DNA of 64,000 bases, taken from NCBI GenBank assembly GCA_963785235.1, contig CAWAUM010000011.1:233724-297723 (forward strand). Direction: 5' to 3'. The translations under genes were made by a program, and so were the position numbers. The notes under the pieces were generated by a model, which saw only the letters and a program-made list of their open reading frames with translations, was not told where the DNA came from and searched no databases. Below, piece after piece: positions 18,908 to 35,887 of this stretch. This DNA is from an uncultured delta proteobacterium (GTDB lineage Bacteria > Desulfobacterota > Desulfomonilia > UBA1062). The stretch's first letter is position 1. Every line of letters starts with the position of its first letter.

Positions 18908-19905
18908 TTAAGGCCTGCCGGATATCCTTCCCTCATTCCTGGGGGAAAGCACAAGCCGCCCGATCAATTCGGTCAGGGCCGCATATACGTGTATCAGTGA
19001 GCTCGATTTTATCTGTTGTTCTATCCCGCGGACATCTTTAAGCAGAGTGGTAAGTTGCGCAATGCTCCATGAGGACTTGCGCCTCATGGCCTTGTCTGCC
19101 ACGAAGTCGTGGATCTTCATCTTCTTCCAGTCGTGTGCCGGAAAGCACTACATAGTGGGTGATGATCTGGTTTTCTATCCTGCTGATTATCTCCAGCTCG
19201 GCGACACCTGAGAGCTCAAGTTCATAGAGGCGTGACAGGGCATCCTTTTTCCGGTCGAACAGCGCATCAAGGAATGCAAATATTACGGGTTCATGCGTGC
19301 GCATGACTGCCTCATGAACATCCTTGCCGGTTATGGAGGGGCTCTGGTGGGCGTACAGGCACAGTTTCTGAATCTCGCTGTCCAGATACCACATGCTGCT
19401 TCCCCCGGTCATGTCGGCAAGCAGCACGGCAGCATCCCTGTCAATCTTCTTCCCATGCAGCGGCGTCCTTTCCATGATCCAGTTGATTCGCTCGCCCCTG
19501 TTCTTGATGGACTCGAAACGGACTATCTCAGCCTTGCCATCGAATTTCTTGATAAGCTTGTTCAGTTCCTTATCCGTCTTCTCAATCTCCATGAATCAGG
19601 ATGAAGGTTGTGATTTCGCATGGATTATCAAGGTAGAGTATCACCTGGTCCAGCTGCTTGGCAGAAAGCTTCTGGCCGTTTTTGATGATGACGACCCTTT
19701 GCTCAGACAGGAAGGGCATGGTGTTGCACAGGCTTATGATCTCATTCATACTCAGGTCTTCTTCAGCGTTGAAGGTAGCCCAGTTCATGGATATGTTCTC
19801 GCCCAGCTGTTGTTTTAATCTTACGAGCTCCTCCTCAACAAGGAACGTCTCCTGGGCTATGAAAACGGAATTGGAAAGCGGGCTTTGAGGTTTCTTTGTG
19901 CTCAT
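18908..19905 (-). CDS. holA: DNA polymerase III delta subunit HolA (split into three ORFs by two apparent frameshifts)
   Basis: The N-terminal piece (19582-19905), middle piece (19038-19592) and C-terminal piece (18908-19120) together reconstruct a delta subunit of about 330 aa. Its position after leuS-lptE matches the conserved leuS-lptE-holA synteny. Confidence 0.7.
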
Positions 19906-22945: not shown

Positions 22946-23017
22946 AAAAATTGGCCCGTTAAAATCATGAATCTCGGTGAAGCCGAGATTCATGATTTTA
23001 ACGGGTAAGGTTTTTTT
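22946..23017. repeat. Palindromic repeat element copy 2 (inverted orientation relative to copy 1), in the divergent leuS/mrcA intergenic region
   Basis: The sequence is aaaaattggCCCGTTaaaatcatgaatctcgg-tgaag-ccgagattcatgattttAACGGGtaaggttttttt. Its flanks are reverse complements of the copy-1 flanks. The stem differs from copy 1 by compensatory changes. Confidence 0.8.
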
Positions 23018-23141
23018 ATCCGAGACCCTTTCCGGAATTGTGCAAAGCTCTTAACTTTTGTAACTGCATTGGTGTCCCTGAGGTCTCTTCAGGCTCTTTG
23101 CGCTTGCATTTCATGGCCATATTGATATGTAAGGGGACACT

Positions 23142-25547
23142 ATGAGGTGGCTCAAATTCATACTTCTTATCATGGTGATCATCATTGTCCTGTGTGGAGC
23201 AGCAATCTATGTATTCGTACTCAGGGGGCTTCCTTCCCTTGAAGAGCTCAAAGGCGATGAGGTGACCAAGCTCAGCAAGGTTACCGCTGCCGACGGTACA
23301 CCCATCGGCTACTTCCCGCCCGAAGGAAGGGTTGTCATGAACGGGCACAACATCCCCATTACCCTCAAGCAGGCCATCATCGCTGCAGAGGATTCCACCT
23401 TTTATGATCATGTGGGACTTGAACCGCGCAGGATCATAAGTGCATTGCTCGCTGATATCAGGGCAAACTCCTATGTCCAGGGCGCATCTACCATAACCCA
23501 GCAGGTTGTCAGGTCGTATCTGCTCACCAATGAAAAGACCCTTGCCAGGAAGGTCAGGGAGATCGTTCTGGCGCTGCGCATCGAACAGGCCCTGACCAAA
23601 GAGCAGATTTTAAACCTGTACCTTGACCGCATCTACCTGGGAAGCGGGGCCTATGGAGTACAGGCGGCCTCCTTTCGTTATTTCGGCAAGGAGTGCAGAG
23701 AGCTCGAGCTCTCGGAGATGGCACTGCTTGCAGGGCTTGCCCCTGCGCCTACGAGATATTCTCCGCTGAATGATTTCACTGCTGCAAAAAGAAGGCAGTG
23801 GTATGTCCTTTCCCGCATGGTGTCCGAAGGTTACATTACCGGAGACGAGGCCCGTGAGGCATACAAGGACCCTTTGAGGATCATAGCCAAGGATGTGGCC
23901 CAATTTTCCGAATACCCCTATATCACCGACTATGTGAAGACGCTCGTGACCAAGCAGTTCGGCGAAGATATCTTCAACAAAGGGATCATTATCCGCACTT
24001 CGATAATACCTGAGCTCCAGCGCTCGGCAATGCTCGCTGTCCGCAAGGGGGTTATCGAGCTGGAGATGAGACAGGGCAAGTATCGTGGCCCCATAAAGGA
24101 TGTACCCCAAAGCGATGGTACGCTCAAGCCATTGGCCCTGCCGACAAGGATCGCATCTTTGCATTGCAGTCAAACCAGCTTGCATGGAAAGGATACGAAC
24201 CCTATGAGCTCTATTGGGCAGAGGTGACAAGACTGGATCCATTAACGGTAAAACTCGGCACCAGAAGCCTGGAACTCGGCCCGGGCAGCTACGCCTGGAT
24301 CAACCCCAAGGGGAATTGGAATCCCGGCAGCGTGCTCAAGCCCGGCGATCTCATAGCAGCTCTGCTCTACGCCCGGCGGTTTTGTGATCTCGCAACACCC
24401 TCAGGTTCAGGGGGTGCTTGTAGCCTTTGATTTGGAAAAGGCCGGCATCCTTGCCATGGTTGGAGGGGTCGACTATGCCCAGAGCCAGTTCAACAGGGCC
24501 ATATACGCAAGGAGGCAGAGCGGTTCGGCAATAAAACCCTTCATCTATGCGGCAGCTATCGACAAGGGGCTGACCCCGGCCTCCATCATCTTCGACTCGC
24601 CGGTGACCTATAATGCCGGGGCGGATGAGGAAATGTGGCAACCTAAAAACTACGAAAACCGCTTCTATGGTGCAACCACATTGAGGACCGGCCTTGTCCT
24701 GTCAAGAAACGTGGTTACCATAAAGATTTTAAACCAGATCGGCCTTGATTTTGCCATCTCATATATCAGACGGTTCGACATGCAATCGGATCTGCCTCGG
24801 AACCTTTCCCTGGCCCTGGGTTCAGGTTCGGTAACCCCTATTAACCTCTTTAAGGGGTATGCCGAGCTGGCCATCTATGGTCAGAAGTTTGATCCCCATA
24901 TGATCGAGAGCATTGTCCAAAGCGGAAAGGGGACTATCTTTCGTGCCCCTGCAGGCCCGGCAGCACTTACTTCTCCTGTTGTACCTGCGGTAACCGCCGG
25001 AACCGAAGGCATTACGGCAGATACGGCCTCTTTGACCAATGTCTTGCAAGATGGTATTGATGCCATCACGTCTATACCGGACCGGGGAGTTATCTCATCT
25101 CAGACGGCCTTCATTATCACGAACATCCTCAAGGACGTGGTGCAGGCGGGAACAGGTTGGCGTGCAAAGGCGCTTATGAGGCCTATTGCGGGAAAGACAG
25201 GTACCAGCGATGACAGCAAGGATACCTGGTTTATCGGATACTCCCCTGATGTCTTATGCGGTGTATGGGTCGGCTATGACAGCATGACTTCGCTTGGCGC
25301 GAATGAGACAGGCGGTAAAACCGCATGCCCAATATTTGTCGACTTCATGACAACAGCGTTGCGTGACAGGCCTGTGCGCGACTTCAGGGTCCCTGCGGGT
25401 GTGGTATTCGCCAGGGTCAACTCCAATACGGGCAAAGGGGCTGGTGAGGATTCTCTGGAATCACGTTTTGAGGTCTTTAAGCAAGGCAGCGTACCTGCAG
25501 CCGAGAAGGCCGTTAATGATGATCAATTGTTAAAGGAGGTCTTCTGA
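23142..25547 (+). CDS. mrcA: Class A penicillin-binding protein (PBP1A-like; two apparent frameshifts near 24150 and 24390)
   Basis: ORF1 has the transglycosylase motifs (EDSTFYDH, GASTITQQ, RKVRE). ORF 24164-24430 and ORF 24384-25547 carry the transpeptidase motifs SAIKP (SxxK), SRN and KTGT. Confidence 0.85.
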
Positions 25548-27334
25548 TGCATGTCCGTGCGGTCTTGCTTCTGGTTGCCCTGATCGCATATTCGCTGAGT
25601 GTTTTTGCTGCGGACATCACCCTTGTGAAACATGCAAGGAGGGCCAAGCCTCTTGGGGCGAGTCAGTATGTAGTGAAGGAAGGCGATACCTTGCGAAGGA
25701 TTCTGATGGAGGGATACAACGCAAAGGAGGAAGACCTTCCTACTCTCTATAAGAGATTCAGGCAGGAAAATCCCGGCATAGCAGATCTTGATTACATACC
25801 TTCAGGCACCAAGATCGTGGTCCCCATAAAAGGAGAGCCCGGCCTTGTTGCCGACCAGAAGAAACCCCCTGGCGAGCTTGAGGTGAGAGAGGCTTCTCCC
25901 AATGAATACGTCATAAAGCAGGGTGAGTATCTCGCCAGGATCATGAGGAAGGTGTACGGTGTCTCGGATGACCTCATCTTTCATGAGTACATGGCCCTGG
26001 TAAAGAAATTAAACCCCGGGATCAGCGATCCGAACCTTATCAAGGCGGGTCAAAAGCTTATTCTGCCGGACATCAAACGGGTAATGGCCAAGGCAAAGAA
26101 TTCCCAGGGGCCTGCTGCCGGAGTGTTATCGGTTTCAACCGCGGGCGTACCCCCACAAGATGTAAGCAATAATACCCCTCCTGCCCTGATAAGTGATGCA
26201 TCAGTCCCTCAGGCAAAGCAGGATACGGATGCATCCGAGCAGCTTCCCAAAACGGCCCCTGCAGCGCCCCCTGTGTTGCCCGGAGTGAAACAGGCAAGTA
26301 ATGGCAAATCGCCGGAACCCGGGAAAGCCAGGGATCTGAAGATGGTCAAAGGTGCAGTCCTGCCGGCCCTGAAGAACATGGGGGGTACGAAGAGGGACAA
26401 AGGGATATATTATATGCCGACCTCGGGAGGCACCGGGTTGTCCATCAACACCTCCGAGATCCCTGTCATGGAACTCGATACGGGGAAGAAGATAATTTTT
26501 GACATGAACGGGACCATCAGCACCGAGGTTAAAGGGTATATCGAGAAGGCCTTCCCATCTTTCACCGTTGTATCCGGTTCGCAAGGGGACCTAGAGGGCC
26601 TGATGGACAAGGTCTTAAGCGTTTCCGGCTATTTCTCCATCAATAAAGACTCAAGTCCTCTTCTCGTGGGAGCAGAAGAAAAACTAAGATTTTTCGGCAA
26701 GTGGATCGTATACAAGGACTTCTCCCGAAACAATGTGTTTGTCGTTAATCTCCTGGGCAATGAAGATCAGAAGACGCCCGGCGGCATTAGAAACTATGCT
26801 AAGCATTTTGGTATCGACCTCATTGAGATCGGCGGTAAAGACACAGGGAGTGCACTGAAAAAATCCGCACAAGTTGCTGACCTGAATCACTCGTATCCGG
26901 CCCTTTTGGGCCGTCTTAAGATCCCTCATGATACGAATAAGGAGATAGACCTGGTAAAAAGCGGCGTGGTGAAGATAACCTACAAGGCCCCGGTGCTTAC
27001 GGGTAAGGTCGTACTCACCGATGTCATGCCTGAAACGGATATGGCCTCACTGCTTCATGAGAAGTCATATGTGTTGCTGAATACCGGCACAGCTGGGCCT
27101 GTTGATGTGCTGGGCGCTCTCGGGCTGGAATTTGAAGGCCCCCCCCTGAAGATGACAATAGCCAAGGGAAGGACAGAACTGGAGATCCCTGGAATACGTC
27201 TTGGGAACAATATCATCCTCTTAAAGAAGATCGATAAAGATATAGCGGCCTATCTTGCAGATTTCGGGGATGAAGGTGATGGTGTGGTAAGGCCCCCGAT
27301 AGGGGGACAGGGTCACAATGAAAAGACTAGATAA
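25547..27334 (+). CDS. Secreted LysM-like domain protein with Pro-rich linker and a C-terminal domain of about 330 aa of unknown function
   Basis: 595 aa with a signal peptide. It has two LysM-like repeats (QYVVKEGDTLRRIL..., EYVIKQGEYLARIM...). Its start overlaps the PBP1A stop (ATGA). Confidence 0.5.
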   Translation: MHVRAVLLLVALIAYSLSVFAADITLVKHARRAKPLGASQYVVKEGDTLRRILMEGYNAKEEDLPTLYKRFRQENPGIADLDYIPSGTKIVVPIKGEPGLVADQKKPPGELEVREASPNEYVIKQGEYLARIMRKVYGVSDDLIFHEYMALVKKLNPGISDPNLIKAGQKLILPDIKRVMAKAKNSQGPAAGVLSVSTAGVPPQDVSNNTPPALISDASVPQAKQDTDASEQLPKTAPAAPPVLPGVKQASNGKSPEPGKARDLKMVKGAVLPALKNMGGTKRDKGIYYMPTSGGTGLSINTSEIPVMELDTGKKIIFDMNGTISTEVKGYIEKAFPSFTVVSGSQGDLEGLMDKVLSVSGYFSINKDSSPLLVGAEEKLRFFGKWIVYKDFSRNNVFVVNLLGNEDQKTPGGIRNYAKHFGIDLIEIGGKDTGSALKKSAQVADLNHSYPALLGRLKIPHDTNKEIDLVKSGVVKITYKAPVLTGKVVLTDVMPETDMASLLHEKSYVLLNTGTAGPVDVLGALGLEFEGPPLKMTIAKGRTELEIPGIRLGNNIILLKKIDKDIAAYLADFGDEGDGVVRPPIGGQGHNEKTR

Positions 27335-27352
27335 CTTTATGCCCTGGGTTAA

Positions 27353-28669
27353 TTATATTTTTGCCGTGGAGATGAAACATGTTCCCCCTGACCCACTGCC
27401 TTCATTAATTGGTTTATCCTCTGTTGTGAATGATACTGAATAATCTGATTTCATTGAATTTCCAGTAAGGTCTTTAACACCATTACTTCCACCCCTTAAG
27501 GTTATCGTATAGGGTGTGGAAAATGCATCTGCACCACTTACAGAGACGGCCATGCCATTAGGAGAGAGACTCAGCTTTGCGGGAACTGTTGTCGAACCAG
27601 ACGTCATAATTATTGTTGAACTGGTAATGGTTGCCGCATTGAGCTTCTCTGTAAATGAAAACTCTATGGGATTTGATACATAGGCCTTTCCGCCAGTACC
27701 CTCGATTCTGTCGTAATAGATCACGGGTGGTATTGAATCTGTTCTGCTGTAAGTAACCATCACGCCATTTTTGCATGCGAAGTAAACCTTTCCCGAGGTG
27801 CTTCCCCATATTGCATAAATGTCAACAAGAGAGGTATTTCCCAGCTTGGTCCATGAAATCCCGTCGTAATGATATACGGCACCGTAATCGCCTGCAGCAA
27901 AGACGTCAGTTGGACCACTTCCCCAGAGACTGTTGAATTTAATGCCGCTGGATGTAGCCGCGAGTTTCCATGTCCCATCATAGTGAAGTATGTCCCCATA
28001 TGAGCCCGCGGCATAGATATCTAAGGTAGATGATCCCCAGAGGGCACGGATATCCTGGCTGGTTCCTGAGCTTGCAGAACTCCATTCACTGCCGTTAAAA
28101 TGGAACAGCTTACCAAGTTCGCCACCAGTGTATACATCATTTGCAGAACTGCCCCAGATGCAATAAAGGTTGATCCCGGTTGTAATAGTAATGGGAGATG
28201 CCAGTTTAGAGGATGTCAGGTTGGTCCATGAGCTTCCGTTAAAGAACAGAATTGTGCCTAACGAACCAACGGCATAGGCGTTTGTGACCGATGCTCCCCA
28301 GATGGCATTAAGGCTAAGGCCATTCAATGATGGGTATTTAACCCACCTGAGGCTATCATTGAGAAAAATATTTCCAAAATTATCTGTAGTGATAATGACA
28401 ATGGGTGATATTCCCCACACTGCCATCAGATCATAGGGGGTATTGCTTTGTATCCATGCAGACTCTTGCCATGAGGTTCCATCATAACTCAAGAATGTAC
28501 CATTTGCTCCGGCAACATAGATATCCTCGTCCGTTGCGCCCCAAATGGCATTGAGATTCTGATCGACAAGGGTAGTTGCTTGCCAATCATCCGCGCAATA
28601 ACCAAAACAAGGCGAAAGAAGAATAAGGAATAATGCTGTGAGCACACCGTATAATACGTTTGTTCTCAT
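27353..28669 (-). CDS. Secreted repeat protein, predicted 7-bladed beta-propeller (W-G / Y-D-G-S-W repeats) plus C-terminal Ig-like domain
   Basis: 438 aa with a signal peptide. It has seven repeats of about 45 aa following a.WG.s..dvYavG..G.ilhydGt.W. A beta-rich tail is consistent with Big-like domains. Confidence 0.5.
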   Translation of the reverse strand: MRTNVLYGVLTALFLILLSPCFGYCADDWQATTLVDQNLNAIWGATDEDIYVAGANGTFLSYDGTSWQESAWIQSNTPYDLMAVWGISPIVIITTDNFGNIFLNDSLRWVKYPSLNGLSLNAIWGASVTNAYAVGSLGTILFFNGSSWTNLTSSKLASPITITTGINLYCIWGSSANDVYTGGELGKLFHFNGSEWSSASSGTSQDIRALWGSSTLDIYAAGSYGDILHYDGTWKLAATSSGIKFNSLWGSGPTDVFAAGDYGAVYHYDGISWTKLGNTSLVDIYAIWGSTSGKVYFACKNGVMVTYSRTDSIPPVIYYDRIEGTGGKAYVSNPIEFSFTEKLNAATITSSTIIMTSGSTTVPAKLSLSPNGMAVSVSGADAFSTPYTITLRGGSNGVKDLTGNSMKSDYSVSFTTEDKPINEGSGSGGTCFISTAKI

Positions 28670-28862
28670 AATGTATCCTTTCCAGAAATACCCAAGGATG
28701 GTTTATTTCAATATATATGTATAATTATAATAACGACGACCTTTGGTCTTTTCAATTCTTTTCTCGACAAAATCCTTTCTATGATCACATCCATAAAGAT
28801 ATGAGAGCAGGTAAAAGTACAGTATGGTATACATTGTCTGACAAACCACTAAGATTTTTGTA

Positions 28863-30302
28863 TTATTGATGATAAATGGTCAGTTTGTCGCCGGGTTTGA
28901 TCTGTGCAGTGGAGGTCAGCTGGTTCCACCGAAGGATGTCCACGGTGGAGACATAGAACTGTTTTGAGATCCCCCAGAGGGTATCGCCTTTCTTTACCTT
29001 ATACTTGGTAGACTTCACGTGTGCCTGTTTGCTTTGTGCCGAGGGGATGATAAGTGCTATTCCTAATTTCAGGCCCTGTTTTTTGGAGATCCGGTTCGCC
29101 TTGGTAATGGCATCTACACTTGAGGAATATTTCCTGGCAAGGGAATATAAGGTGTCGCCCTTACGCACGGTATGATTAACGTTTGTGGCGGATTCTTCGT
29201 TGGTATCCGGTTGGGCTGCAATACCTTTCTTTGATGATTTCGGCGTGTTTCTGCGGACCTTATCCCCGCCATTCTTTATTGACAAAGACTGGGCGTCAGT
29301 AAAGGATTCAGGGTTATTATCCGCCAAGGACACAGTAAGGCCGCTGTTTGATTTTGCGATTCTATCCAGATACTCCTGGCTATCCACTGTCTCGGGTGTC
29401 CCGGGGGCAGTGCCCGGCAAGGGATTCGGCAGCCCGTAGGCGTTACGGTTTTTAGCCAGGATGACAGTGGCGATATATTTCGGCACATAATCGATAGTCT
29501 CAGGCTTTATGTTCATGGAATTGTTTATGTCCCAGAATGTGTAAACCCCATGGTTTTTCATGAGACGGATGAGCGTCCCTTCTCCTGCGTTGTATGCAGC
29601 AATAGCCAAATACCAATCGCCGAAGATGGAATAGAGGTGTCTCAGGTACTGTGCTGCTGCTTGTGTGGATTTCTCCAGGTGTTTACGCTCATCCACATAT
29701 TTGTTCACTTGCAGGCCATATCTCTTTGCGGTATCCGGGATGAACTGCCAGTAACCAGTTGCTCCGGAGCTTGAGACTGCATGCGGGTTGGCATTACTCT
29801 CAACCAGGCATAAGTAGACGAGGTCCTTGGGGATGCCGTTTTGTTTGAATATCCGCTCCAATGTAGGGCGTATCTTATCAAGCCTGGACAGAGAGCCCTT
29901 GAATGCATCACGGTCTTTAACCGAGAGGCGTTCGATCCAGAGCTGCACTATGGCATTGACCTCATAGGTGCCGTCTGCAGTCTTTTTTTTCTGCGGTTTC
30001 CCCTTTTTCTGAACAAGCTCATCCTCCTTCATTTTTCCCGGGATTATTTCTTTGGATTCTTCCTGGATCTGGGGTAAATCGATTTCTTTGGGAGGCTGCT
30101 CTTTTAGTGTCATAGGTTCCTGGATTGAGCTAAGGTCCAGAACCTGACTAGGCGGATGTGTCGGCGGATAGTTGGAATGGAGGTCGTGCGCGCATCCAAG
30201 CAGTGCGAACACAAAGGTATACATGAGTGTTGCCCTGAACGAGTTCATTCTCATCAACCTCCGAATTGTTGTTTTTTTATCTGGATTGGATGAAACCTTC
30301 AA
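28863..30302 (-). CDS. mltD: Membrane-bound lytic murein transglycosylase D-like (SLT domain + two C-terminal LysM domains)
   Basis: The SLT catalytic region is LCLVESNANPHAVSSSGATGYWQFIP. The LysM domains are HTVRKGDTLYSLARKY and YKVKKGDTLWGISKQF. A lipobox (ALLGC) suggests an internal start at about 30250. Confidence 0.8.
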   Translation of the reverse strand: MKVSSNPDKKTTIRRLMRMNSFRATLMYTFVFALLGCAHDLHSNYPPTHPPSQVLDLSSIQEPMTLKEQPPKEIDLPQIQEESKEIIPGKMKEDELVQKKGKPQKKKTADGTYEVNAIVQLWIERLSVKDRDAFKGSLSRLDKIRPTLERIFKQNGIPKDLVYLCLVESNANPHAVSSSGATGYWQFIPDTAKRYGLQVNKYVDERKHLEKSTQAAAQYLRHLYSIFGDWYLAIAAYNAGEGTLIRLMKNHGVYTFWDINNSMNIKPETIDYVPKYIATVILAKNRNAYGLPNPLPGTAPGTPETVDSQEYLDRIAKSNSGLTVSLADNNPESFTDAQSLSIKNGGDKVRRNTPKSSKKGIAAQPDTNEESATNVNHTVRKGDTLYSLARKYSSSVDAITKANRISKKQGLKLGIALIIPSAQSKQAHVKSTKYKVKKGDTLWGISKQFYVSTVDILRWNQLTSTAQIKPGDKLTIYHQ

Positions 30303-30391: not shown

Positions 30392-31249
30392 ATGCAACTC
30401 CCAATTGTACACAATAATGCTGTTGCGGCGCTCATCAGTAAATTTGATCGATTACCCGCACTGACCAAAGAGGAAGAATCCAACCTGGCCTTGCGTTTAA
30501 AGGAAAAGGGCGATATCGATGCCGCCCAGAGGCTTATCACTGCCAACTTGCGCAACGTTGTCCGTATCGCCATGGATTATAGCGGTTATGGGCTCCCCAT
30601 GGAGGACATTATCCAGGAAGGCACTATCGGCTTGATGATAGCCGTGAAAAAGTTTGATCCCCATAAGGGATACAGGCTTATGACTTATGCCGTCTGGTGG
30701 GTCAAGGCCATGATTCACGATTATATACTCAGGTTCTACTCACAGGTGAAACTTGGCACTACCAAGCTGCAGAAGAGGCTCTTTTACGGTCTTAACCGTA
30801 TGTCGGCCGAGGAGGATGTAGTTGACGAACACATAACCGAGAAGTCCCATGCCCTTTCGGCCAGGCTCGATGCTGATCCCCAAGCCATCGAGGAGATCAT
30901 ATCACGTCTGACCAACAGAGATCAGTCCCTCGACAGCCCCATGACGGACGGAAGTGACTCCAGTTTTATGGATTTCCTGGTGGATACAAGGGCAACTCCC
31001 GAGGACAGGGTCATGGAGTCCCAGCGGGCGTCTTTTGTTAAGGGCCAGATTGACGCCGCCCTTGAAAAGCTATCGCCGCGCGAGCAGGAAATCGCCCGGC
31101 AGCGCCTCATGGCAGAGAACCCATTGACATTGGAGGATTTAGGAAGGCAATATGCCATTTCCAAAGAGAGGGTCAGGCAGATCGAGAATAACGTGAAGGT
31201 CAAACTCAAGAAGGCCCTTGCAGGTCATCTAGATCTCATGCTGCCATAA
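30392..31249 (+). CDS. rpoH: RNA polymerase sigma-32 factor RpoH
   Basis: 285 aa, sigma-70 family with regions 2 and 4. It carries an RpoH-box-like LQKRLFYGLNRM (consensus QRKLFFNLR). Confidence 0.8.
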   Translation: MQLPIVHNNAVAALISKFDRLPALTKEEESNLALRLKEKGDIDAAQRLITANLRNVVRIAMDYSGYGLPMEDIIQEGTIGLMIAVKKFDPHKGYRLMTYAVWWVKAMIHDYILRFYSQVKLGTTKLQKRLFYGLNRMSAEEDVVDEHITEKSHALSARLDADPQAIEEIISRLTNRDQSLDSPMTDGSDSSFMDFLVDTRATPEDRVMESQRASFVKGQIDAALEKLSPREQEIARQRLMAENPLTLEDLGRQYAISKERVRQIENNVKVKLKKALAGHLDLMLP

Positions 31250-31267
31250 AAATTAAGGGGTATTTCC

Positions 31268-31714
31268 ATGATAACCCGCAAGAAGGCATTTGCAGAAGAT
31301 CTCCTGCTCCTTCAGGACAGGATGAACAGGGTTTTTGAGGAGAGTCTGAGGGAAACCGGTATTTCCCGGAATCCAGGACAGTGGATTCCCTACGTGGATA
31401 TGTTTGAGGATGATGTATCGCTTATACTCAAGGTCGAGCTTCCTGGTGTGAGGCGCGAGGATATTGGACTCGATATTACTGAGGGTATTCTCACCATCAG
31501 CGGCAAGAAGCCCTTTGAGCACGAGGAAACCTCTGAGAGTTTTCATGTCATGGAGCGGCAATACGGGCTTTTCAAGAGATCTTTCACCTTGCCCGGGTCG
31601 GTGGATGTTGAGAGCATTGAAGCCGGATATCATGCAGGTGTCCTGGAGGTGGTCCTTCCAAAACCCGCGGACACGAAGTCGAGAAGGATACCCATTATCA
31701 GGCAAGGCGATTAA
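31268..31714 (+). CDS. Hsp20/alpha-crystallin family small heat-shock protein
   Basis: 148 aa. The alpha-crystallin domain is KVELPGVRREDIGLDITEGILTISGKK...GVLEVVLPK. It starts 18 nt downstream of rpoH. Confidence 0.85.
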   Translation: MITRKKAFAEDLLLLQDRMNRVFEESLRETGISRNPGQWIPYVDMFEDDVSLILKVELPGVRREDIGLDITEGILTISGKKPFEHEETSESFHVMERQYGLFKRSFTLPGSVDVESIEAGYHAGVLEVVLPKPADTKSRRIPIIRQGD

Positions 31715-32240
31715 AGATCGCAAGGTTCAGGGTATTCATCGCACTCTTTTTCGATATGATATCAACTAACTTAAAGGGATGGGGGAGTTCAGGCGTACTG
31801 AGGGTGAAAAGGTAATAAAGCCTCCCTCCCGGCATGAGGAGCTTCAAACAGACATCTTCCAAGGTGCTCAGTGGTGAAAATGACCTTGCGAGTACGGCAT
31901 CGAATTGCCCGACTTCATCATGGAAAGGGTCATGTGGGAGGATTTCCACATCAGATAGGTTAAGCAATTCGATTGTATGCTGCAAGAAGGTGCATTTTTT
32001 GACGCTCCGCTCAATCAGGCAGATATGCGAGTCAGGATGGAGGATTTTGTAAGGGATTGCAGGCAATCCTGATCCTGAGCCAAGATCGGCAAGAACAGGC
32101 TCTTCTATTTGCATTAGCAGGGGCAGCATTACTTCAAGCTCATCTTCAATACCTGTAAGCATAGAAGGCCCCATCAGGTGGAGCTTGCCGTTATAACGCC
32201 TCAGCTCCCGGATCCATGTTTTTAGCCTCTCGTCCATCAT
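31698..32240 (-). CDS. rsmG: 16S rRNA (guanine527-N7)-methyltransferase RsmG (GidB)
   Basis: 180 aa. The SAM-binding motif is LADLGSGSGLPAIP. It is the last gene of the mnmE-rsmG block. Confidence 0.85.
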   Translation of the reverse strand: MMDERLKTWIRELRRYNGKLHLMGPSMLTGIEDELEVMLPLLMQIEEPVLADLGSGSGLPAIPYKILHPDSHICLIERSVKKCTFLQHTIELLNLSDVEILPHDPFHDEVGQFDAVLARSFSPLSTLEDVCLKLLMPGGRLYYLFTLSTPELPHPFKLVDIISKKSAMNTLNLAIFNRLA

Positions 32241-33560
32241 TTTCCGACGCAGAAACGGGAGAATATCCGCTCAAGGATGTCCTCATCAGCGGTCTCGCCG
32301 GTCATTTGTCTGAGATGATCCATTGCATGCTTCAGATCAATAGTGAGTACGTCTGCGGTGAATCCTTCTAGGGTGGCCTTCAGGCAGGAGTTAAGGCTGT
32401 CAAGGGTCTTGCCAAGGAGGTATGTGTGCCTGTCCAGGAACACCAGCGGCTGGTCGTGTGGAAATGCCCGCCTCATGGCGGTTAATAACTCGTCAATGCC
32501 AAGAGCATATTTGGCCGAGATGCCAACCGTATCATACCCCGGGGCATCATTGACCTCTCCTTCAACCAGGTCCTTCTTATTCATTACCACAATAGTCTTT
32601 TCCGCCAGGTCCAGCCACTGTCTCTCATGGGATTTGATCCCCTCCCGGGCATCCACTACATAAAGGACAAGGTTGGATGCCTTCAAGGTCTCAATGGTCT
32701 TTTCCACCCCGATCCGCTCAGGTCCTGATGCAGTTTCCCTGATTCCGGCGGTGTCGTGGAATACAAAGTCCATACCGCCCAGGTACAAATGCTCCCTCAG
32801 GACATCCCGGGTCGTTCCTTCCTCATGGTGTACAATGGCCCTGTTATACCCTAAGATAGCGTTGAAGAGCGATGACTTGCCCACATTGGGCAGTCCTGCA
32901 ATGGTTGTAACAATACCTTCATATATCCCTTTGGCCTCTGTAGCGTCTTTGAGAAGCCCGGAGATTTGTGAAGTGATGTGGGTAAGCGTTTCGAGGAGTG
33001 TTTCTTGCCCGATGGGTTCATCCTCAATGATAAAGGATGCTTCAATATCGGCTAGTATCACCATGATAACTTCGATCATAGACTTGACCCTGCCTGAAAG
33101 CTCACCTTTCAGGAGTGCATGTGCCATCTCGCAGCCTATTGGACTTGAAGAGCCGATGAGTGCGCCAACGGCCTCGGCCTGGACCAGGTCCATCTTGTGG
33201 TTTAAAAAGGCCCTCCTGGTGAATTCTCCCTTGTGTGCCAGGCGTGCTAGGCCGGTGGATGAGATTGCTCCCATAATACGCTCCACCACCAGCGGGTTGC
33301 CGTGGCAGCTTATTTCGGCCAGGTCTTCTCCGGTATATGAGTCAGGGCCGGGGTGGAACACGAGCATAGTCTGGTCTATGATAGCGCCCTTGCTATCTTT
33401 AATGAGTTCGAGGAACTGAGTGTGGGGTGAGAGTTTATGGTTTGAGCTGATCCTTGAAATAATATCAAGCGTATGCACTCCGCTCATGCGGATAATGCTG
33501 ATAGCGCCGTGACCTCTCGGGGTCGACTCGGCATAGATGGTGTCTTTTACCGTCTCGATG
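32237..33560 (-). CDS. mnmE: tRNA modification GTPase MnmE (TrmE); start codon uncertain
   Basis: The G-domain is GLPNVGKSSLFNAILG, DTAGIRE. The C-terminus ends CVGK. The conserved N-terminus KDTIYAESTPRGHGAISIIRMSG lies in frame upstream of the track ORF start (33487) and overlaps the jag stop. The open frame has no ATG, GTG or TTG upstream. Confidence 0.85.
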
Positions 33561-34284
33561 CCTTCCTCGGCACAATGATCACTTTTTTATAAATACCTTC
33601 GCCAATACTCTTGGTATTAAGCCCGTTCTCATTCTTGAGGGCAAGATGAATGATCCTGCGGTCATAAGGATTCATCTTTTCCAGAGAGATGGCCTGGCCG
33701 GTGCGCTTGGCCTTTTGCCCCATCTTCAACGCCATGGACTTGAGATAGCTCACATGCCTTTGTCGGTACCCTTCCGTGTCCAGGGTTATAAACACCGGTT
33801 CGGACCTCGATTTGTTGATGATCCGGTTGAGGATAAACTGTAAAGAATCCAGTGTCTGTCCTCGTTTGCCGATTATCAGACCGGAACCGTCACCCATGAT
33901 CTCAAGGAGACCTTCTTCACGGACCTTTACCTCTCCGGGCATGTTCAGCAGCCTTAAGAGGTCGCTGACAACCCCTTGTGCCTCTAGAAGCATTTCCGGC
34001 GTTGGTGCCTGGGATTCGCTGGGAGGCTCCGGTTTAGGTTCTGCAGAAGGGGCCGGGGTTGTCTTAATTACTTCTGCTTTGATTCTATCGGGTTTTAAGA
34101 CGGCCTTTTCATGCCTGACCAGTATCTTTGCAGTTTTGTTACCAATGATTCCGAACAGACCCTTGGAGCCCTCGGAAACGACCTTGACCTCGAGGTCGTC
34201 AAAATCAGCATGCAAGGTCTTCATGGCAAGGATGACTGCCTCGTCTACGGTCTTGGCTTCAAATTCTCGGAAATCCTCTTCCAT
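33548..34284 (-). CDS. jag: Jag/KhpB RNA-binding protein (Jag_N, KH, R3H)
   Basis: 245 aa. The KH GxxG is IGKRGQTLDSLQ, and an R3H domain sits at the C-terminus. It occupies the yidC-jag-mnmE position. Confidence 0.8.
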
Positions 34285-34293
34285 TCTTCTCTC

Positions 34294-35887
34294 CTATGCG
34301 GTTTTCCTGTTTATGTAAGCCTGCTGGGCAATTGAGAGGATATTGCTCACGAGCCAGTATATGACCAGACCGGAGGGGAAGCTCAGGAACATGAAGGTAA
34401 AGACAACCGGCATGAAAAGCATGATCTTCTGCTGCATGGGATCACCCGTGGTAGGCGTCATTTTCTGCATGATAAACTGGCTCGCCCCCATGAGGATGGG
34501 AGTGATGTAGTAGGGATCGCTGGCTGAAAGATCCGGGAGCCAGGTGCCGAACATATGGAACGGGGTGTGTCTGAGCTCAATGGCCTGGTAGAACACCTTG
34601 TAGAGGGCAAAGAGAATGGGGATCTGCAGGAGCATGGGCAGGCAACCACCCATGGGGTTGATCTTGTGCTCCTTGTAGAGCCGCATGAGCTCCTGGTTCA
34701 TCTTCTGTTTGTCGTCCTTGTACTGCTGCTGGACCTCCTTCATGAGCGGCTGGATCTTCTGGAGCTCCTTCATGGAGGTGAAGCTCTTGAGGGTCAGAGG
34801 ATAGAGAAGGAACTTGATGATGATGGTCAGGATGATGATAGTCCACCCGTAGCTGCCCACGTATTTGTAAATCCAGTTCATGGACATGAGCAGCGGTTTG
34901 GCGATGATGTCGAAGAATCCGAAATCCAGGGCCTTGTTCAGCTTGTATCCCACAGCCTCCAGGGGTTTCAGCTCTTTGGGGCCTAAGAAGATGATATTGT
35001 CCTTGATCAGTGATGAACCGGCTGCAATAGTGGCTGGGGCAAAGGTGTAGTTGAGCTCCACAGTCTTGTCGCTGGTACGTTTTATGATGAGAGTGGTACT
35101 CGAAGGTGTCTTGGGAATGATGGTCTGGAGAAAGTACTTATCCTCAAACCCGAACCACTGGATCTCTCCGGTGAAATCCCTATAACTCCCGATATTCTTA
35201 ACCTTGTCGATCTTGAATTCTTCAAGGTGCTTGCCGTTCAGCAGAACAGGGCCTTCAAAGGCGTACCCGCTGCTCTTTTCATCAATCTTATAGGTATGGT
35301 TAAACACGATCCCGCCGGATACGGACATGGGTGAGGCGGTATGATTTTCAATAATAGCCTGGTATCCTATCTGATAGGTTTTGGGGTCTATGGTGAATAC
35401 TTTTTTCAGGGTGATGGCGGGCGATGCCTGGCTTCGGAATTCAATGACCTGTGGTATGTCGGCAAGTGTCACGGGACCCTGCTGGGATGATTCATAAACA
35501 AGGCCGACATCTGTGAACCCACCGGAAAGAACAAGGTTAGGCATTGGGGCTTTGATGATCTCAACCGGCTTTGCGTCCTTGTCCATGGAGGTAAGGTATT
35601 TCTTCAATTTTAAAGAGGTGATCTGGGCACCTTTCGTGCTGAAGGTGGCAGTATACAAGGGGGTATCTATGATGACATCGTTACCAGCAATACTGAGAGT
35701 TTGCGGGGCTGTGGTCGGGGCGACATCGATGGGTTGTACCTCCTGAGTCGGCTGGCTTGGCGCTGCAACAATGGGCTGCCGGCTTCGGCTCAGGTGCGGT
35801 TTTTATCTTTGTCTGGTCAAAAAGCAAGCCCCAGCCGAACAGAATGGCCATTGATAAAATGATGGCAAGCAGAGTCCTTTTTTCCAT
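34294..35887 (-). CDS. yidC: Membrane protein insertase YidC (apparent frameshift near 35660-35700)
   Basis: The conserved C-terminal 5-TM core is YPLTLKSFTSMKELQKIQPLMKEVQQQYK...GGCLPMLLQIPILFALY. The N-terminal TM/signal segment is in the separate ORF 35681-35887. Confidence 0.85.

Follow-up and report, generated by a model that had tools for sequence, protein, structure and literature searches.

A secreted LysM protein encoded in a conserved pair with a class A penicillin-binding protein is a candidate cofactor in uncultured Desulfomonilia

Does a class A penicillin-binding protein (PBP) have a dedicated partner when a secreted, peptidoglycan-binding protein is encoded directly behind it? 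The question is raised by a locus on a 64,000-nucleotide (nt) stretch of DNA, hereafter the window, from an uncultured delta proteobacterium of the Desulfomonilia (assembly GCA_963785235.1, contig CAWAUM010000011.1, positions 233,724 to 297,723, forward strand). Four genes occupy positions 23142-30302, as a first-pass annotation of the window had located them: those for PBP1A, a LysM protein, a secreted beta-propeller protein and an MltD-like lytic transglycosylase (Table 1). The regulators LpoA and LpoB occur in gamma-proteobacteria only, and their role elsewhere has been predicted to fall to unrelated proteins (Typas et al., PMC3060616). A streptococcal LysM protein binds and regulates PBP1a (bioRxiv 10.1101/2024.11.08.622053). 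Control of class A PBPs outside the gamma-proteobacteria and Firmicutes is largely unknown, and the locus provides a concrete candidate defined by synteny. We consider it an even call that the LysM protein works in the periplasm as a partner dedicated to the class A PBP whose gene lies immediately upstream.

The two genes meet at overlapping stop and start codons. The overlap had been given as ATGA in the first-pass annotation; the actual sequence is TGATG, in which the PBP1A stop and the LysM-gene start share 1 nt, with a Shine-Dalgarno sequence 8 nt upstream. The proposal that the genes are co-operonic is supported by this overlap, which can be read directly, and by the retention of the junction in 52 related loci. 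Approximately 43 of these have a spacing of -1 nt (as TGATG or TAATG) and the others one of 0 to +1 nt, and the Shine-Dalgarno sequence AAGGAGG is the same in all 52. Even in P0100 and P0101, which have diverged furthest among the core members (35-42% identity), the LysM gene lies 1 nt after the PBP1A transpeptidase domain. To judge by gene order and spacing, PBP1A and the core-subfamily LysM gene make up a single translationally coupled unit wherever a core-subfamily protein is encoded.

A protein search returned 94 full-length relatives of the LysM protein at 38-89% identity, none with a functional name, from metagenome-assembled genomes (MAGs) labeled uncultured Desulfomonilia, "Deltaproteobacteria" or "Syntrophaceae". 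When one genome per GTDB species was scanned, 48 loci were obtained; in two, the contig breaks off within the LysM gene or shortly ahead of it. All of the other 46, which are the informative loci, have the end of the PBP1A transpeptidase domain immediately ahead of the LysM gene, and independent metagenome contigs show the pair as well. The pairing is far beyond chance because every informative species genome keeps it while the other flanks differ. The first-pass annotation had made its proposal depend on conservation of the pair among relatives, and a class A PBP gene adjoins the LysM gene in every subfamily relative examined. Many loci have leuS-lptE-holA upstream and propeller and MltD-like genes downstream; L001 has a ubiE-like gene upstream and an ROK gene downstream, and L003 has a gene for an ABC substrate-binding protein downstream. 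Of 39 informative loci, 33 have an MltD-like gene downstream and 23 a propeller gene; both are missing from six loci in which enough DNA is available downstream. The conserved core is a two-gene unit and not a four-gene module, since the presence of the propeller and MltD-like genes varies among loci. The synthesis-plus-hydrolysis neighborhood described at first pass thus applies to part of the clade and does not extend to the six loci that lack both genes.

The LysM protein is exported, is not a lipoprotein and consists of two LysM modules, a flexible linker and a folded C-terminal domain. It had been described at first pass as a secreted protein of 595 amino acids (aa) with two LysM-like repeats and a Pro-rich spacer, and all of this except the length agrees with our analysis. 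The signal peptide is cleavable and has no lipobox; across 87 family members, the cleavage site is a conserved xA followed by (A/E)(D/E)ITLVKHA(R/K)R, and the signal-peptide Cys is neither conserved nor in lipobox context. Both LysM domains pass the Pfam gathering cutoff for PF01476 (20.9 bits) when scanned separately, and a PDB profile alignment to Ecp6 covers both repeats. The linker is Ala/Pro/Glu/Lys-rich (A 14.5%, P 12.6%, E 11%), with a length of 32-220 aa (median 95) across 89 family members. As for the length, an extra nucleotide inserted at 27261 throws the final 9 codons out of frame and swaps the conserved end, SGMKVMVW followed by the stop, for a false tail of 21 residues. The homologues all end in A(A/S)SG(M/L)KV(M/L)xW, and the 21 residues added by the open reading frame (ORF) of the window are unrelated to them; the corrected protein has approximately 580 aa.

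We also note that the first 10 residues of the mature protein (25610-25642, the (A/E)(D/E)ITLVKHA(R/K)R stretch) are nearly invariant and more conserved than the LysM domains. A short motif for docking or strand addition is one possible role for this stretch.

Against Pfam, the C-terminal domain gives no match even at E<=10; NCBIfam likewise gives none, and a PDB sequence-profile search gives nothing significant. The statement that it belongs to no recognizable family therefore holds against these three databases, and the novelty of the fold is established against the PDB only. A match to a well-known unrelated family, which the first-pass annotation had named as a second ground for abandoning its proposal, was thus not found in them. 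An AlphaFold2 model built with 90 homologues predicts two alpha/beta subdomains with good confidence (mean pLDDT 89.7, pTM 0.81), and approximately 40 positions are invariant among 23 diverse members. Several possible relationships were considered and rejected. CdiA toxins appear in the PDB profile search as weak matches that are not significant (E 0.13-0.31). There is no signal of an internal duplication between the two subdomains; a weak self-match of 29 columns is seen within the second (hhalign probability 61%). One subdomain weakly resembles the restriction-endonuclease-like fold, and the canonical Asp position appears from the alignment to be Leu. A PD-(D/E)xK nuclease fold was rejected, as neither a significant structural match nor a conserved D...(D/E)xK triad was found. 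The domain contains no invariant His or Cys and shows no likeness to a known hydrolase fold.

The pattern of conservation within the domain is more informative. A block of 45 residues is rich in polar positions that never vary (D, E, K, S, Y, N, R), and the polar block GYFSxNK...EEK...GKWxVYKDxxRxN is conserved in the PBP-linked subfamily only. A search of 1.84 billion representative sequences with a profile of the domain gave 428 clusters at E<=1e-3, with scores that fall from 278 to 128 bits after approximately 20 core clusters. The remote members of this wider family of approximately 400 clusters come from Deltaproteobacteria/Thermodesulfobacteriota MAGs and share the LysM-plus-domain layout, and one of them also has an SH3_3 wall-binding domain. 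They lose the polar block and keep mainly Gly, Pro and hydrophobic positions. A polar block limited to one subfamily suits an interface specific to a partner better than it suits a catalytic site common to the family. In L001, identity is 47% in the C-terminal domain, 41% in the LysM region and 52% in the PBP1A transpeptidase domain, which suggests that the C-terminal domain evolves about as slowly as the PBP1A catalytic domains.

The upstream gene encodes a recognizable class A PBP, with Pfam scores of 198.8 bits for Transgly (PF00912) and 100.9 bits for Transpeptidase (PF00905). The glycosyltransferase motifs EDxxFxxH (AEDSTFYDHVG), GASTITQQ and RKxxE (RKVRE) are legible in its translation, as are the transpeptidase motifs SAIK (SxxK), SRN (SxN) and KTGT (KTG). 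In the window, this frame is interrupted and appears as ORFs of 361 and 387 aa. We aligned the DNA to the three closest relatives, L011 (92.6% identity), L006 (88%) and L010 (75%), and found two changes specific to the window, the loss of 1 nt after 24133 and the gain of 1 nt at 24358; the stretch between them (approximately 24133-24358) codes for conserved PBP1A sequence in another frame. The two halves score 271.3 and 284.5 bits with TIGR02074, and intact orthologues pass its cutoff of 508.75 bits (L006, 561.2; L001, 568.7). The E. coli MrcA equivalog model gives 488 bits against a cutoff of 1263, and the protein is therefore a member of the PBP1A family but not an MrcA equivalog. The MrcA model aligns over the whole length, and the inter-domain segment sits at the position of the docking (OB-like) domain of the E. 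coli protein; PCB_OB scores 21.9 bits in the L001 PBP1A, which is under its threshold. We would guess that this segment is a contact site for the LysM protein.

At least four frame-disrupting 1-nt indels lie within approximately 8 kb of the window: two affect PBP1A, a third the 3' end of the LysM gene and a fourth holA. The last of these is an essential gene upstream (19038-19905, minus strand) and is broken into ORFs of 107 and 184 aa. Because holA is split too, the indels are probably assembly errors and not signs of pseudogenes. A pseudogene reading was judged unlikely also on the ground that the displaced segments still code for conserved sequence. The window probably derives from an error-prone, perhaps long-read, assembly, and its ORF lengths are probably unreliable.

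Taken as a dedicated partner, the LysM protein would be fixed on the sacculus by its pair of LysM modules, and the linker would allow the C-terminal domain to reach the membrane-anchored PBP1A. The C-terminal domain would then dock on PBP1A, perhaps in the inter-domain region, which is the docking site of LpoA on the E. coli protein, and docking would modulate or localize glycan polymerization and cross-linking. The polar surface specific to the subfamily would be the interface with PBP1A. We infer the step from a coupled partner to a regulator like LpoA or LpoB from gene order, and several observations weigh against taking it. Operon membership indicates functional linkage and not regulation. 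A LysM region, a linker and a C-terminal domain are also the usual layout of wall hydrolases. The remote homologues are solitary genes in contexts unrelated to one another, and none of four such loci (L054-L057; proteins P0105, P0185, P0107 and P0108) has a PBP within 6 kb; the C-terminal domain as such is therefore not PBP-specific. In addition, no fusion of the C-terminal domain to a PBP occurs among the 150 matches listed. A stronger version of the proposal, in which the LysM protein is an obligatory peptidoglycan-anchored activator of PBP1A, we hold only tentatively and would sooner doubt than accept. If it were true, the pair would represent a third independently evolved means to couple the activity of a class A PBP to the state of the sacculus, alongside the Lpo lipoproteins of the outer membrane and the membrane regulators of Gram-positive bacteria, and would use a fold that has no solved relative. 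The wider family might then be repurposed for other wall enzymes.

The main alternative is that the C-terminal domain is a new enzyme that cleaves or modifies peptidoglycan, targeted to the wall by the LysM modules and co-expressed with PBP1A as a "space-maker" that would make room for the insertion of new strands. MltD, NlpD/DipM and LytE-type autolysins are likewise periplasmic or wall-located and combine an N-terminal LysM region with a low-complexity linker and a C-terminal effector, and the MltD-like gene two genes away follows the same logic. The density of invariant polar residues in the 45-residue block and the SH3_3 domain of one remote homologue would also suit an enzyme. However, loss of the polar block in homologues of the same fold would be unusual for a catalytic site. 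The lack of an invariant His or Cys and of resemblance to a hydrolase fold points the same way, as does the Leu at the Asp position of the weak endonuclease-like match. Moreover, in contrast to those wall hydrolases, the C-terminal domain is not an SLT, M23/LytM, NlpC/P60, amidase or other recognized hydrolase domain. We regard an enzymatic role as unlikely on this evidence.

A structural tether or scaffold that joins peptidoglycan to another envelope component, such as the outer membrane or the propeller, and that would be co-transcribed with PBP1A but have no direct action on it, seems to us improbable. Two LysM domains and a long tether would serve such a purpose, the varied contexts of the stand-alone remote homologues suggest a general wall-associated role, and the gene is often found near that of a secreted propeller, which carries a putative sorting motif. 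A generic tether, however, needs no coupling to PBP1A, and that coupling is strict and tight to 1 nt across the subfamily while the propeller and MltD-like genes vary. It could finally be argued that the gene order is inherited without any functional connection and that the locus of the window is a decaying pseudogene pair, as all carriers belong to one uncultured lineage, in which shared ancestry adds to synteny, and the window copy has three frame-disrupting indels. Yet rearrangement has altered the flanks more than once, and the pair with its 1-nt junction remains intact down to approximately 35-40% identity, and the frameshifted segments code for conserved sequence with catalytic motifs intact in a region where holA is split as well. 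This last explanation is very improbable.

How does the proposed partner compare with known ones? LpoA, LpoB and LpoP are extracytoplasmic and lineage-restricted, combine an anchor and a long spacer with a globular domain, and are each dedicated to one class A PBP, on a non-catalytic region of which they dock (PMC3060616); the LysM protein resembles them in layout, with docking predicted here. The Lpo proteins are outer-membrane lipoproteins, whereas the anchor of the LysM protein, if any, would be peptidoglycan through its LysM domains, and the protein resembles no known Lpo protein in sequence or fold. A further difference is the overlap of stop and start codons between the genes for PBP1A and the LysM protein; to our knowledge, no operon arrangement of an Lpo protein and its PBP has been reported. 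The streptococcal S protein (Ess) is likewise a LysM-bearing, wall-binding partner of a class A PBP, a partnership that here is predicted. In contrast to our protein, it is small, membrane-anchored and Gram-positive, with one LysM domain and no large C-terminal domain. Its gene lies between cmk and fer, away from pbp1a, and its homology with the LysM protein is limited to LysM. Our literature search turned up no description of the LysM-protein family, nor of any class A PBP from a Gram-negative bacterium that has a LysM partner encoded alongside it. The LysM protein is thus a candidate for an uncharacterized, lineage-restricted cofactor of a class A PBP, with a predicted fold that has no solved relative. 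The confident predicted structure of its C-terminal domain is of structural interest in its own right. All carriers are uncultured MAGs, which puts genetics in the native host out of reach.

Table 1. Features of the PBP1A/LysM locus, in window positions
Feature	Position	Strand	Details
Promoter-like motif	23104..23131	+	-35 TTGCAT (23104-23109), 16-nt spacer, extended -10 TGaTATGTA (23123-23131)
PBP1A, class A penicillin-binding protein	23142..25547	+	GT51 glycosyltransferase, inter-domain region, transpeptidase domain
Translational-coupling junction (predicted)	25533..25549	+	Shine-Dalgarno AAGGAGG 25533-25539; TGA 25545-25547; ATG 25547-25549
LysM-protein gene	25547..27334 as assembled	+	Corrected stop 27288-27290, approximately 580 aa
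Signal peptide, residues 1-21	25547..25609	+	Cleavage between VFA and ADITLVKHARR, AxA-type; no lipobox
LysM domain 1, residues 41-93	25667..25825	+	PF01476 23.8 bits scanned alone
LysM domain 2, residues 121-174	25907..26068	+	PF01476 30.4 bits scanned alone; 40.8 bits in whole protein
Linker, low-complexity, Ala/Pro/Glu/Lys-rich, 86 aa	26072..26329	+	Poorly conserved
C-terminal domain, approximately 320 aa	26330..27290	+	Two alpha/beta subdomains, invariant C-terminal Trp
Secreted 7-bladed beta-propeller with Big_5 Ig-like domain (residues 332-416)	27353..28669	-	
MltD-like lytic transglycosylase lipoprotein	28863..30302	-	Lipobox LLGC, SLT 94.2 bits, two LysM 93.9 bits

Upstream of PBP1A, the sequence CTTGCATTTCA-N5-CATATTGATATGTAAGG (window 23104-23141) contains the promoter-like motif in a fixed, gap-free register that ends 10 nt ahead of the PBP1A ATG. 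The register is kept in most of 38 aligned loci, even where PBP1A is only approximately 60% identical. A generic promoter scan made no call at this motif. We infer from the conserved register that it acts as a promoter, in which case the short distance to the ATG implies a PBP1A mRNA that would be leaderless or have a very short leader. A sigma-54 promoter was rejected, since the spacing in the alignment of related loci is wrong for one.

The divergent leuS/PBP1A intergenic region also contains an inverted repeat (22946-23014) with 32-nt arms that are 88% complementary, a perfect core of 23 bp, a loop of 5 nt and an A-run and a T-run on its flanks. Apart from the window, only L011, the closest relative, has the repeat, which is absent from L006 and the other relatives. 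No Rfam family matches the hairpin at gathering score, and we rejected a T-box or other riboswitch on that basis; permissive E-values return only generic hairpin matches to miRNA models. The repeat looks like a lineage-specific insertion that resembles a bidirectional terminator.

Downstream, on the opposite strand, the description of the third gene product as a 7-bladed propeller with an Ig-like tail is confirmed by seven four-stranded blades that close a ring, followed by a Big_5 domain. The family is large, with 785 matches at E<=1e-10, some of which are labeled as photosystem II stability/assembly-factor-like. Its C-terminus (27353-27397, minus strand) reads GGTCFISTAKI and resembles the CFI-box, a putative sorting motif; G-G-x-C-F-I-S-x-A-R(M) ends 17 propeller/Big_5 homologues (L002, L006-L008, L010, L013, L016-L019, L021, L026, L028-L030, L040 and L050). 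The NF041763 model of this 14-residue motif scores 11.9 bits in the window and 13.6 in L008, against a cutoff of 15.9. The motif suggests that the propeller C-terminus may be processed or anchored by an uncharacterized sorting system. A search of the literature for "CFI-box-CTERM" found nothing.

The fourth gene product has the architecture of MltD (lipobox, SLT domain and C-terminal LysM repeats), and to that extent the earlier assignment stands; the NF008050 score of 189.5 bits is under the equivalog cutoff of 508, and we use the label MltD-like for this reason. The true start of the gene is probably an internal ATG that gives MRMNSF....

Beyond the four genes, positions 30392-35658 encode a sigma-70-family factor (region 2 and region 4), followed by rsmG(gidB)-mnmE-jag-yidC on the minus strand, and L002 and L005 repeat this order. 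The rsmG(gidB)-mnmE-jag-yidC cluster lies near the replication origin in many bacteria. The mnmE and yidC ORFs of the window begin a few residues inside their Pfam models.

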